From: Acinetobacter phage Aristophanes
Sequence record: MT783706.1
DNA: 43,505 nt
Direction: 5' to 3' (one strand)
This document shows, in pieces, positions 1 through 43,505 of this stretch (within the stretch, counting starts at the first letter, position 1; every line of letters begins with the position of its first letter). Under the pieces are notes generated by a model that was given only the letters and a program-made list of their open reading frames with translations, was not told the origin of the DNA and did no database searches. The position numbers and the translations under genes were made by a program.

Positions 1-184
1 ATCCTTCAGGGTATTCCTTCAGGAGTTCTTCAGGAGTTCTTCAGGAGTTCTTCAGGAGTTCTTCAGGAGTTCTTCAGGAGTTCTTCAGGAGTTCTTCAGG
101 AGTTCTTCAGGAGTTCTTCAGGAGTTCTTCAGGAGTTCTTCAGGAGTTCTTCAGGAGTTCTTCAGGAGTTCTTCAGGAGTTCTT
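1..184. repeat. Left copy of the direct terminal repeat (DTR) of a linear phage genome
   Basis: Positions 1-184 are identical to 43322-43505: 'atccttcagggtattcc' followed by tandem 'ttcaggagttc' units. The right copy is truncated by the window end, so the true DTR may be longer. Confidence 0.85.
18..182. repeat. 15 perfect tandem copies of an 11-bp unit (ttcaggagttc) inside the DTR; mirrored at 43339-43503
   Basis: Direct reading: 15 x 11 = 165 bp of exact tandem repeats. The unit contains AGGAG and its length matches the DNA helical repeat. Confidence 0.9.
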
Positions 185-535
185 GAGCCTTCGGCTCAGG
201 TTCTCCAGTGTTTCTCCAGTCCTATCTTCTGATATTCATAGTATCATACTCTTTCAGGTTGTCAAGCATCTTTGTATTTATTTTCTTAGTTTTATTCTTA
301 GGTTCTATCTTAGCTGGTTCGCTTGCTTCTTTTGCTTCTTTACTTCTTATCTTACTTTTTACTTCTTCTTACTTCTTCTTTTACTTCTTACTTCCTTGCT
401 TACTTCTTTTCGCCTTCCCTTCCTTCCTTCCTAGCTAGCAAGTTCTATCTATTCTATCTATTCTATCGAATCTTTATTCCCTATAGATTCTCTTCGTTCC
501 TTTCTTTTCTTTTCTTTTTTAATACGCATGATTCT
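185..535 (+). repeat. About 350-bp polypyrimidine (C/T-rich) tract on the + strand with degenerate short repeats (tacttctt, ttctatc, ccttcc); non-coding
   Basis: Strong strand asymmetry read directly. The ORF-track entries 183-434, 208-438 and 323-538 translate to low-complexity L/F/S-rich artefacts. Confidence 0.8.
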
Positions 536-540
536 TAAAT
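519..540 (-). promoter_or_regulatory. Inverted (leftward) copy of the conserved phage-promoter-like motif (aatcatgcgtattaa)
   Basis: The minus strand reads 'atttaagaatcatgcgtattaa', a 20/22 match to the + strand motifs at 7920-7941 and 20804-20825. Confidence 0.4.
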
Positions 541-708
541 TTATTTATATATATCAATGAGTTATAATACCTGAAAATAAGATTAGATAGTACTGTTTAA
601 AGATATATCTATAAATTATTCTATAATTATTTTATAAATATAATCCTTTATAATTCATAGAGTTATATAAGTTTATTAAATTATTTTAATTTATTTATTA
701 AAAAGTAC

Positions 709-737
709 TTGACTTATATTTTTATCGGTATCATAAT
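709..737 (+). promoter_or_regulatory. Host sigma70-type early promoter (TTGACT, 17-bp spacer, CATAAT) with an AT-rich UP-like region upstream
   Basis: -35 ttgact at 709-714 and -10 cataat at 732-737. The motif 'agtacttgac' is shared with the second promoter. Confidence 0.6.
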
Positions 738-40949: not shown

Positions 40950-42902
40950 ATGTTATCAGACACAGTTATTAGTCGGTACAAGATGCTACACCAAGCATGT
41001 CAGAAGTGGAATCATCAACCTGAACTCATACCGCTTGAGGAGAGGGAACTACTAGCTACTATCTGTGCTGGTGCTTTCAGGGAGTTCCGAGACTTCGCTG
41101 AAGTGGGTATGCAGTACTTAGGCTTCAAGTTATCTAGTATTCAATCAGACATTGCTGTGTTCATGCAGTACGGTCAGAACAAACGTATGGTGCAGGCACA
41201 ACGTGGGCAGGCTAAGAGTACCTTAGCAGCGTTGTACTGCATCTGGTTACTTATACATAAACCAAGTACACGAGTACTTATTGTATCAGGTGGTGGTGAT
41301 CAAGCAGATGCTATTAGTATTCTAGTAGTTCGTATTATTATGAACTGGAGTATCTTAGCGTGGTTACGTCCTGATACTACTAGAGGTGACAGGGATAGTA
41401 CAAAGAACTTCGATGTACATGGTTCATTGAAGGGTATTGATAAATCAGCTAGTGTAAGCTCAGTAGGTATCACAGCGAACCTACAAGGTAAACGTGCTGA
41501 CTTCATCCTCGCCGATGATATAGAAACGCAGAAGAACTCTATGACTCAACCTATGCGTGAGCAGTTGCTGTTACTAACTAAAGAGTTCGCAGCTATCTGT
41601 ATCACAGGTGAGATTATGTACTTAGGTACACCTCAGACTAAAGATTCTGTGTATCGAGTACTACCTCAACGTGGTTACGATGTGCGTATCTGGACTGGAC
41701 GTTACCCTACAGAAGAAGAACTACAACGCTATGGTGCTGGTACACAAGTAGCACCTACGATCATGCAGAAACTCTTAGAGAATCCAGACCTACAGACTGG
41801 TGGTGGTATCACAGGTAAACGTGGTCAACCTACAGACCCTGATCATATCTCAGAGGAGATTCTTCAAGAGAAAGAGTTAGAATACGGTGATGAAGGCTTT
41901 GCCTTGCAGTACATGCTCGATACAACGCTCTCAGACGCTCTTAGAACGAAGATTAAGCTCAGTGATATGATAGTACTAGGGGTAGGCTCAGAGAGTGCTC
42001 CTGAGAGCGTACAGTGGTCCTGTGAGCCTACTAAGCAGTTCAAAGACCTGAACCCTGCTATTACATCGTTCAGGATGTACTATGGTGCAGGCGTATCTGA
42101 GAACTACGTTAAGTACGAACACAAGGTGATGTGTGTAGACCCATCAGGTGATGGTGGTGATGAGTTAGCTTACGCTGCTGGAGGAGCTACAAATAGTTAT
42201 ATTTATTTACTATCGGTAGGTGGCTTCAGAGGTGGTTTAACAGAGCAGAACATTAACTTGATTCTACAGAAGATGATTACTCTTGGTATTAAAGACCTCC
42301 AGATCGAGAAGAACATGGGTCATGGTGCTGTTACAGCGTTGTTCCTAGCACAGATAGATAAACTACGTCTGTGGTGCGCTATGGACTCGCAGGAGGAGTC
42401 TTTTAAGGAGTTCTGTACTCAGGTACAGCTAACGCCGTTGGAACTCTCTACGAGGCTCTCAGGCATTGGTGTGACGGATTATCATGTACTCGGACAGAAA
42501 GAGAAGCGTATTATTGATACGATCTCCCCAGTGACTCGTAGGCATAAGCTAGTGGTTAGCACAGAGGCTATTGCAGAGGATTGGGAGATGTGTATGAAGC
42601 ATCCCCCTGATAGACGAGTGTTCTACAGTGCGTTCTATCAGTTAGGTAACATCACTTACGATAGGCAGTCTCTAGTTAAGGATGACCGAGCAGACGCTGT
42701 ACAAGCTCTTGTAGAGCGATTACAGGGGTATTTAGCTAAGGATGAGGCTAAGGTAGCAGTAGAGCGTCAAGAGGCTGCTATGAAGGAATGGTTAGCGAAT
42801 CCGATGGGGTACACTGATAGTCAGTACCGTAGAGAGGCTAGGGGTAGACCTAGAACAACAGGTTCAAGTTTAAATAGGAGAGGTTTCGGTGGTAGAAGAT
42901 AA
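40950..42902 (+). CDS. Terminase large subunit (T7 gp19-like)
   Basis: 650 aa with 'ADFILADDIETQ' (Walker B-like). It is the last large gene before the right end. Confidence 0.8.
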   Translation: MLSDTVISRYKMLHQACQKWNHQPELIPLEERELLATICAGAFREFRDFAEVGMQYLGFKLSSIQSDIAVFMQYGQNKRMVQAQRGQAKSTLAALYCIWLLIHKPSTRVLIVSGGGDQADAISILVVRIIMNWSILAWLRPDTTRGDRDSTKNFDVHGSLKGIDKSASVSSVGITANLQGKRADFILADDIETQKNSMTQPMREQLLLLTKEFAAICITGEIMYLGTPQTKDSVYRVLPQRGYDVRIWTGRYPTEEELQRYGAGTQVAPTIMQKLLENPDLQTGGGITGKRGQPTDPDHISEEILQEKELEYGDEGFALQYMLDTTLSDALRTKIKLSDMIVLGVGSESAPESVQWSCEPTKQFKDLNPAITSFRMYYGAGVSENYVKYEHKVMCVDPSGDGGDELAYAAGGATNSYIYLLSVGGFRGGLTEQNINLILQKMITLGIKDLQIEKNMGHGAVTALFLAQIDKLRLWCAMDSQEESFKEFCTQVQLTPLELSTRLSGIGVTDYHVLGQKEKRIIDTISPVTRRHKLVVSTEAIAEDWEMCMKHPPDRRVFYSAFYQLGNITYDRQSLVKDDRADAVQALVERLQGYLAKDEAKVAVERQEAAMKEWLANPMGYTDSQYRREARGRPRTTGSSLNRRGFGGRR

Positions 42903-43113
42903 AGCAGTTAAGCTCAAAGAGAAGATCAAGGGAGTAGACCTTGATGTAGTAGAGAACGATCTACGTATCGTTATTGATACAGTAGAGACTTTGAATAAGG
43001 ATAACACCAGTAGTAAAGCAGATAACATTCAACGTGGTGTTAATGATGCTCGGAAGGTACTAGGTATCTTTAGTGCTATTCGGAGTATCTTCAGAGTGTT
43101 TAAGAAGAAGTAG
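42889..43113 (+). CDS. Hypothetical protein (74 aa, GTG start, basic amphipathic C-terminus)
   Basis: ORF overlapping the terminase gene end, in a T7 gp19.5-like position. Confidence 0.35.
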   Translation: MVEDKAVKLKEKIKGVDLDVVENDLRIVIDTVETLNKDNTSSKADNIQRGVNDARKVLGIFSAIRSIFRVFKKK

Positions 43114-43321
43114 ATACGGAGATGTAGTGTGGAACTAGGTTTATTATTTGTGATTGTACTAGGTATTATTCTATCATTTAGTTAGGTGTGTGTGTGGCTT
43201 AGTGTCCAGATGGGAGTACTAAGTCACTTCTAATTTTTGGTAGAAATTTACGAGAGGGTATCCCCACCCTGAGCACCGCAGAGTTCCCCCATAGGGGCTA
43301 CTACAAGCACCCTGCTGAGGT

Positions 43322-43505
43322 ATCCTTCAGGGTATTCCTTCAGGAGTTCTTCAGGAGTTCTTCAGGAGTTCTTCAGGAGTTCTTCAGGAGTTCTTCAGGA
43401 GTTCTTCAGGAGTTCTTCAGGAGTTCTTCAGGAGTTCTTCAGGAGTTCTTCAGGAGTTCTTCAGGAGTTCTTCAGGAGTTCTTCAGGAGTTCTTCAGGAG
43501 TTCTT
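43322..43505. repeat. Right copy of the direct terminal repeat (truncated by the window end)
   Basis: Exact repeat of positions 1-184. Confidence 0.85.

Follow-up and report, generated by a model that had tools for sequence, protein, structure and literature searches.

We analyzed a polypyrimidine tract at the genome's left end in Acinetobacter phage Aristophanes (sequence record MT783706.1), which is represented by a 43,505-nucleotide stretch of DNA (i.e., the window). The tract lies at positions 185 to 535 of the + strand, and its dense core (324 to 520) opens with a short box whose counterparts coincide with the annotated inner repeat boundary of eight other phages. In phage T7, the arrays flanking the terminal repeat were reportedly named SRL and SRR in the original T7 sequence paper. 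We propose, with a probability of about one-half, that positions 324 to 520 are this lineage's version of a T7 SRL-type array that acts in cis on the processing of concatemer junctions. The tract is real and statistically extreme, yet it is, as judged from sequence comparisons, a lineage-specific variant of the T7-type repeat-flanking arrays and not an oddity of one genome.

The 43.5-kb window is the genome of a T7-like podophage that is distantly related to the Acinetobacter phages of Beijerinckvirinae (Friunavirus, Daemvirus, and Pettyvirus). Its DNA polymerase, RNA polymerase, and large terminase genes share approximately 70 to 75% nucleotide identity with their Beijerinckvirinae counterparts, and no record in the phage collection aligned over more than a few percent of the window. 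The long ORFs (open reading frames) all run from left to right, ending with the large terminase gene (40950 to 42902) and a 74-codon ORF (42889 to 43113). Four close metagenomic relatives (rel1 to rel4, i.e., L007, L008, L009, and L091) were obtained from four viral-contig scans; two metagenome scans returned no further close relatives. Early proteins of the window were 83 to 91% identical to those of L007, L008, and L009. All four relatives carried the same elements in the same order as the window (i.e., end motif, hairpin, copies of an 11-mer, hairpin, leftward TTGACA block, boundary box, pyrimidine-rich tract, a block reading TACGCATGATT ... TATATATATCAAT ... ACCTGAAAA, AT-rich spacer, and first early promoter).

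The box that opens the dense core (Table 1) was found at the annotated inner repeat end of APK2, AS11, APK87, fBenAci003, phiKMV, LKD16, LKA1, and KP34, which represent three subfamilies. The ends of AS11 were confirmed by Sanger sequencing (PMC5537680). Inner-edge sequences fell into two classes, ATCTGT(T) in T7, T3, SP6, and gh-1 and TGCCTCT(TTT) in Friunavirus, phiKMV, LKD16, LKA1, and KP34, and no description of the latter class was found in the searchable literature. The window and its relatives carry a TGCYTCTTTT-type box, of which the window has extra copies at 368 (one mismatch) and 399. ATCTGTT was absent from the vicinity of the window junction, with all six copies located in the genome body (5704, 35011, and 35854 on the + strand; 10739, 28733, and 29610 on the - strand); the position equivalent to the ATCTGTT site of T7 was occupied by the different conserved box, TGCYTCTTTT. 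Separately, we observed an ATCTGTT heptamer approximately 85 nt past the terminal repeat of the Yersinia phage phi80-18. The persistence of the box at a putative end-forming site over three subfamilies is the strongest functional pointer in this analysis.

The ends of the contig are identical across exactly 184 bp (1 to 184 and 43322 to 43505), and this overlap had been taken as the direct terminal repeat (DTR). The overlap contains a tandem array of an 11-bp unit, CTTCAGGAGTT (Table 1), which occurs in only one or two copies at the equivalent site of the three closest relatives, all of which are permuted contigs that read straight through the junction. This difference suggests that the array expanded in the window and that the contig was broken inside it; the 11-bp array is probably a recent expansion, and the contig probably breaks within it. 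The unit shares only a TTCTTC core with the motif of the tract (in tandem it reads ...GTTCTTC...), and we noted its resemblance to the GTTCAGRAGT repeats immediately left of the Petty terminal repeat.

The inner repeat boundary of Friunavirus, AGCT/TGCCTCTAT (the slash marks the end of the repeat), corresponds to GCT/TGCTTCTTTT at 321 to 333 in the window. We therefore predict a physical terminal repeat of approximately 384 bp (43261 to 43321 plus 1 to 323), close to the lengths of the Friunavirus repeats (340 to 410 bp), and the 184-bp DTR of the contig is probably not the physical repeat. With a boundary between 323 and 324, which is placed by homology only, positions 185 to 323 would lie inside the repeat. 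An initial annotation of the window had described the whole tract as abutting the left terminal repeat, and this description would apply to 324 to 535 but not to the part before it.

Within the predicted repeat, two hairpin elements flank the 11-bp array in the same order as inside the terminal repeat of T7. The first of them matches T7 over 15 nt even though the two phages are far apart. The hairpin at 184 to 198 reads GAGTC..GACTC in the relatives, with both sides of the stem changed. The TGTCAA block of the leftward promoter-like site at 238 to 265 is kept in the relatives, Friunavirus, Petty, and Acibel007. The noncoding sequence before the predicted repeat (43113 to 43260) is G/T-rich and poor in C (9%) and includes a (GT)5-like run. 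Its GC skew (+0.52) is opposite to that of the tract beyond the repeat, and GGGAGTACTG repeats occupy this stretch in rel2.

Pyrimidines accounted for 265 of the 351 bases of the tract (75.5%), compared with a genome mean of 46.6% (binomial z = 10.9). The top-ranking 350-bp interval began at 169 (76% pyrimidine), and intervals past position 900 ranged from 35.7 to 53.1% (standard deviation [SD], 2.5%). Positions 185 to 535 are the strongest 350-bp pyrimidine outlier in the window (>10 SD). The strong strand bias reported in the initial annotation was thus confirmed, but the wording "almost purely C/T" was an overstatement, as 86 of the 351 bases were purines and only positions 324 to 520 were dense. 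This core was 83% pyrimidine (56% T, 27% C, 12% A, and 5% G). Purines interrupted it roughly once in 6 bases, and its longest pure pyrimidine runs were 24 nt (497 to 520) and 20 nt (413 to 432). Positions 185 to 323 were only 67% pyrimidine and contained a hairpin and the leftward promoter-like site.

The core is built from imperfect motif copies in a single (+) orientation (i.e., five of TTACTTCTT, three of CTTRCYTCTTTT, (CCTT)n, three of TTCTATCTA, and (CTTTT)n). All five genomic copies of TTACTTCTT fell within 340 to 408, where 0.7 copies were expected, at irregular spacings of 19, 10, 12, and 19 nt. The short repeats that had been named at the outset proved to be real, with TACTTCTT present five times at 341 to 408, CCTTCC four times at 413 to 431, and TTCTATC three times at 443 to 467. 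A search of the genome for the tract motif as a general terminator found no copies outside the tract.

A pyrimidine-rich, G-poor tract occupied the same place in all four close relatives (80%, 78%, and 67% pyrimidine in rel1, rel2, and rel3, respectively; G, 6 to 10%). Both flanks of the tract were conserved, and the interior aligned poorly and was built from different units, consisting of (TC)n and TTTATTCTC in rel1 and rel2 and of GCTTACTTCTTTT boxes and ATAGATAC units in rel3 and rel4. Changes in the tract between close pairs were mostly insertions/deletions (indels) of whole units, with 59 to 112 gap columns versus 7 to 16 in the adjoining spacer. The aligned positions of the tract were more similar than those of the AT-rich spacer (95% versus 85% identity between rel3 and rel4; 85% versus 66% between rel1 and rel2). 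A comparison of related genomes for a tract kept in position but varying in sequence had been suggested, and this is the pattern that we found, with place and composition conserved across the relatives and a variable interior.

The bias extends to more distant phages, for which the coding background was 42 to 50% pyrimidine. In four Friunavirus genomes and Petty, 220 to 340 bp directly past the annotated repeat were 67 to 70% pyrimidine, with TTCTTATC, TGCCTCTAT, or TTCTCTAATCA as the units, and Acibel007, whose record has no annotated repeat, was 60% pyrimidine past the same box. In the G+C-rich Pseudomonas phages phiKMV, LKD16, and LKA1, pyrimidines made up 63 to 73% of the first 200 to 300 bp past the repeat. 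Values were 66% and then 56% in the first two 100-bp blocks of SP6 and 54 to 62% in KP34. Positions 161 to 400 of T7, with eight copies of CCTAAAG, were G-poor (9 to 14%) and not pyrimidine-rich (approximately 52%). An array of ACTAAGG-like units past the repeat of phi80-18 (426 to 625) was 72% purine, a strand bias opposite to that of the window. As judged from these comparisons, the general class consists of short-repeat arrays that have a strand bias and a single orientation and lie immediately inside the left terminal repeat. Its phiKMV/Beijerinckvirinae flavor is polypyrimidine in composition, and the clade of the window carries the extreme form. In this phage family, strand-biased short-repeat arrays commonly adjoin the terminal repeat, and the earlier view of the tract as something unusual for a phage genome end was not supported.

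We favor a role for the core as a cis element in concatemer-junction processing. The first box would mark the inner-end cut of the terminal repeat on replicating concatemers, and the downstream box copies, together with the pyrimidine-rich repeats, would provide an adjacent platform for the assembly of the packaging machinery. Terminase would assemble on this platform, possibly with the phage RNA polymerase stalled after transcribing through the junction. The analysis shows the position, repeat anatomy, and conservation of the tract, the coincidence of the box with annotated repeat boundaries, and the weakness of an RNA:DNA hybrid over the tract. Of the roles offered in the initial annotation, a protein-binding region fits best, as the boxes share one orientation and the first is located at the annotated repeat boundary in eight phages.

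The involvement of a polymerase is suggested by comparison with T7. ATCTGTT is a class II pause/termination signal of T7 RNA polymerase, and signals of this class are proposed to depend on an RNA:DNA hybrid that is weak compared with the DNA duplex. According to one account (PMC3276506, citing Zhang and Studier 2004), the polymerase-lysozyme complex was reported to pause at ATCTGTT and to engage gp18/gp19, leading to maturation and packaging. In the window, the rightward balance of hybrid minus duplex reached its genome-wide instability maximum in the tract (+1.8 kcal per 9 bp; mean, -0.3; z of approximately 9), and no intrinsic terminator was found between the end of the last ORF (43113) and the junction. 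The TGCYTCTTTT box and the array might be the counterpart of the T7 ATCTGTT in the phiKMV/Friunavirus/KP34 supergroup, i.e., an unrelated sequence class that would stall the single-subunit polymerase at the inner repeat edge and couple transcription to the end-forming cut. We offer this counterpart tentatively and consider it rather unlikely. Because hybrid instability follows from composition and because phi80-18 carries a purine array, we are less confident of the stalling step than of the cis-element claim as a whole.

Several points weigh against a cis-acting role for the core. We infer a boundary at 323 in this phage, protein binding to the boxes, and an importance for cutting or packaging, but the terminal overlap of the contig itself ends at 184, and the position of 323 comes from homology only. 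Two 26-nt deletions inside the box array distinguish rel3 from rel4; thus, the copy number of the boxes is not tightly constrained. Pyrimidine richness is not universal (the T7 array is A/C-rich, KP34 is weak [54 to 62%], and phi80-18 is 72% purine), so that composition may be a by-product of the motif, which weakens the polymerase-stalling submechanism. To our knowledge, no function has ever been demonstrated for the SRL of T7, and nothing usable was found in the literature on SRL/SRR arrays. Details of the required sequences were not given in papers citing Chung and Hinkle 1990, and a search for literature linking "pyrimidine-rich" or "polypyrimidine" with these phages returned nothing.

Much of the sequence turnover could also arise in a neutral low-complexity spacer, in which a functional seed (i.e., the boundary box) was copied and degraded by slippage and most of 334 to 520 only spaces the early promoters from the end. 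Points in favor of such a spacer are the microsatellite-like units ((CCTT)n, (CTTTT)n, and three copies of TTCTATCTA; (TC)n in rel1 and rel2), the prevalence of unit indels among the differences between relatives (59 to 112 gap columns), and the variation of interior motifs even among close relatives. A neutral spacer would be expected to drift to background, yet the bias persists from Acinetobacter to Pseudomonas phages with different sequence and G+C content, and the aligned tract positions are better kept than the adjacent spacer in two close pairs. A neutral spacer is a possible but unlikely explanation. We find it unlikely as well that the tract belongs to a replication origin, whether of an iteron/IHF/unwinding type made up of the repeated boxes, the IHF-type site, and the spacer of 13% G+C or of the T7-style secondary left-end type. 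The AT-rich sequence (536 to 708) directly adjoins the box array, the IHF consensus at 552 to 564 is perfect and conserved, the cumulative GC skew has its minimum near 650 to 750, and the leftward transcript would be purine-rich, with a hybrid stabler than the duplex (-10.8 versus -9.6 kcal per 9 bp). However, T7-type phages initiate replication at phage-polymerase promoters and are not known to use initiator-bound iterons, and the promoter search revealed no conserved leftward promoter on the right side of the tract. An origin would also leave unexplained the coincidence of the first box with the terminal-repeat boundary in eight genomes, and in AS11 and AS12 the three phage promoters that have been mapped lie elsewhere (PMC5537680).

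The properties of the rightward transcript raise the further alternative of a transcriptional insulator only, in which C-rich, G-poor, unstructured RNA and a weak hybrid would stop read-through, intrinsically or via Rho (rut-like), with no role in DNA cutting. This RNA would be 27% C and 5% G, would have a minimum free energy of -11.4 kcal/mol (-49.1 ± 7.7 for other 197-nt intervals), and would match the composition of rut sites (C-rich, G-poor, unstructured RNA of approximately 80 nt or more). The tract also holds the largest hybrid-versus-duplex deficit of the genome, and the lack of an intrinsic terminator between the last ORF and the junction would suit an insulator. These insulator properties follow from composition and are therefore not independent evidence. 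A purine-rich array occupies the same place in phi80-18, and Rho action on single-subunit phage polymerases in vivo is doubtful. Upstream, no candidate for a rightward sigma-70-like promoter reached 10 of 12 matches, the sole one (at 43148) having 9 of 12. We regard an insulator as decidedly unlikely. The initial annotation had also raised an H-DNA (triplex) element, possibly a brake or pause during DNA entry, in keeping with the homopyrimidine runs of 24 and 20 nt, two all-pyrimidine mirror repeats (363 to 380 and 501 to 517), and the location of the tract upstream of the first promoter, within approximately 770 bp of the predicted genome start. Against this, purines interrupt the tract about every 6 bases, and the mirror arms are only 8 nt; mirror repeats of that size were missing from rel2, rel3, APK2, and phiKMV (four of the five other genomes tested), and mirror symmetry is therefore not the conserved property. 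The tract has no long uninterrupted mirror-symmetric run, and H-DNA was rejected as a selected property. The arrest of T7 DNA entry past the leading segment is attributed to virion proteins and not to sequence, which counts against a brake; the whole proposal is highly improbable. Finally, the chance that an ORF at 183 to 434, 208 to 438, or 323 to 538 encodes a protein is negligible. The frames are open for 71 to 83 codons, but, as stop codons require purines, several + strand frames stay open together, and their products are of low complexity (rich in leucine, phenylalanine, and serine). Indels of many sizes separate the relatives, and the translations had no conserved counterpart or significant similarity in them (best tblastn E value, 0.012, in a four-sequence database). 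We agree with the original designation of these three overlapping ORFs as artifacts, and the tract is noncoding.

To the right of the tract, a perfect IHF consensus occupies the equivalent site in rel1 to rel4, APK2, Petty, and Acibel007 and is absent from phiKMV, LKA1, KP34, and T7. The original placement of the tract between the terminal repeat and the early promoters was correct, the first sigma-70-type early promoter being at 709 to 737. The block at 553 to 581 was considered as a repeated phage-polymerase promoter and rejected, as the window holds no second copy, and a k-mer search for a phage promoter consensus yielded only repeats in coding regions. In the rel2 contig, what looked like an inverted second copy of the right-flank block was discarded as a chance match in a coding region. 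Past the first early promoter, the leader at 743 to 775 (ATACCAAGACGGAACGAAAGGAAAGTTAAGG) is purine-rich and nearly invariant in rel1 to rel4; its positions 754 to 766 are complementary to 488 to 500 of the tract. A 40-nt inverted repeat (805 to 844 and 999 to 1038; 88% complementary) brackets a 43-codon ORF (865 to 996) in the first early transcript, and this stem may be an RNA processing or stability element, comparable to the T7 and T3 sites for RNase III. An Rfam scan of positions 1 to 1700 gave a spurious subthreshold microRNA match in the tandem array as its sole match.

Table 1. Features around the predicted terminal repeat of the window and repeat/unique boundaries in other phages (a slash marks the inner end of the repeat)
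Feature	Position	Strand	Description
Left copy of terminal overlap	1 to 184	+	17 to 184, 15.3 perfect copies of the 11-bp unit CTTCAGGAGTT; same array at 43338 to 43505
Predicted start of physical terminal repeat, TCCCCACCCTGAGC...	43261 to 43321	+	Aligns with annotated Friunavirus left ends (TCTCCCACC...); inside annotated Petty repeat
Hairpin element GTTCCCCCATAGGGG	43283 to 43297	+	Identical to 15 nt of the T7 terminal repeat; kept in rel1, rel2, and Petty
Hairpin TGAGCC-TTC-GGCTCA	184 to 198	+	Analogous to GTCAACC-TTC-GGTTGAC in the T7 repeat
Leftward sigma-70-like promoter (TTGACA, 16 nt, TACTAT, upstream TG)	238 to 265	-	Position analogous to annotated A0 of T7 and T3
Boundary box GCT/TGCTTCTTTT	321 to 333	+	Predicted inner repeat end between 323 and 324; opens the dense tract
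Box array	324 to 412	+	Degenerate CTTRCYTCTTTT / TTACTTCTT copies at 340, 359, 369, 381, and 400; 88 to 90% pyrimidine
(CCTT)n microsatellite	413 to 432	+	20-nt unbroken pyrimidine run
TTCTATCTA, three tandem copies	443 to 469	+	Similar TTCTATTCTATTCTA found in Friunavirus
(CTTTT)n-like run, right end of tract	497 to 520	+	24 nt of unbroken pyrimidine; (CCTTT)n here in rel1 and rel2
Conserved right-flank block TACGCATGATT ... TATATATATCAATGAGTTATAATACCTGAAAATAAG	523 to 581	+	Present in relatives; related block in Friunavirus
AT-rich spacer, 13% G+C	536 to 708		Between tract and first early promoter
IHF consensus WATCAANNNNTTR, perfect match (TATCAATGAGTTA)	552 to 564	+	One of only three matches in the window; follows an AT run
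First rightward sigma-70-type early promoter (TTGACT, 17 nt, CATAAT)	709 to 737	+	Kept in relatives and Friunavirus
Boundary in APK2, AS11, APK87			AGCT/TGCCTCTAT
Boundary in fBenAci003			GAGC/TTGCCTCTTT
Boundary in LKA1			/TGCCTCTTTT
Boundary in phiKMV, LKD16			/CCTTGCCTCT (three copies in phiKMV)
Boundary in KP34			/TGCCTTGCTTATTTT
Boundary in T7, T3			CCCT/ATCTGTT
Boundary in SP6			GCTA/TCTGTT
Boundary in gh-1			/CCTATCTGT

T7-type repeat-flanking arrays have been visible since T7 was sequenced and are still without an assigned function; the window presents an extreme form (83% pyrimidine). The comparison offers a handle on them, namely, a short box at the annotated repeat boundary, where T7, T3, and SP6 carry a polymerase pause signal. 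This follow-up also adds a corrected anatomy, in which the repeat is probably approximately 384 bp and the contig overlap reflects the expansion of a tandem array. Should the box direct end formation, one could predict from sequence where the genomes of metagenome-assembled T7-like phages truly end, a minimal packaging signal would be at hand for engineering therapeutic phages of Acinetobacter, Pseudomonas, and Klebsiella, and the function of the array would be testable through simple deletions. If the box also stalls the polymerase, an end-forming signal would be named for a large group of therapeutic phages, and their polymerases would have a short, hairpin-free terminator. If the box does not direct end formation, the tract would be an ordinary, fast-evolving spacer.

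Among known systems, origins composed of iterons, an IHF site, and AT-rich DNA resemble the window in having a direct-repeat array with an IHF consensus and a 13% G+C stretch adjacent to it. They differ in that the repeat spacing of the window is irregular and its first repeat is located at the predicted terminal-repeat boundary; no initiator protein is known from phages of this family, and the analysis did not include a search for an initiator gene. The window shares strand-asymmetric purine/pyrimidine composition and pure runs of 20 to 24 nt with H-DNA mirror repeats; however, the tract is broken about every 6 nt, its arms are at most 8 nt, and the symmetry is not conserved. In cosB of phage lambda, R sites for the terminase small subunit and an IHF site lie beside the nicking site. 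The window similarly has repeated boxes (321 to 412) by the predicted end-forming site and an IHF-type site, although lambda has cohesive ends in place of direct terminal repeats, the terminase small subunits are unrelated, and the IHF-type site of the window lies 140 bp away from the boxes and has no counterpart in phiKMV, LKA1, and KP34.

Two parallels are with T7. Like the class II signal at the T7 concatemer junction, the box of the window would occupy the first bases past the repeat, and the tract is the genomic extreme for hybrid weakness; the heptamer ATCTGTT is replaced here by TGCYTCTTTT, to which the response of the polymerase is hypothetical. With regard to the arrays, the motif of T7 is CCTAAAG, whereas those of the window are TTACTTCTT and CTTRCYTCTTTT, and the pyrimidine contents are approximately 52% and 83%, respectively. 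T7 also carries the array motif in the sequence preceding the right-hand repeat, unlike the G/T-rich sequence at 43113 to 43260, which lacks the tract motif; in Friunavirus, CTTATCA is present both inside and after the terminal repeat. As in T7 and T3, the array of the window is noncoding, lies upstream of the early promoters, and consists of imperfect same-orientation copies of one motif on a G-poor + strand. If the left terminal repeat stops at the predicted position 323 and not at 184, the array would also start, as theirs do, at the inner repeat boundary.

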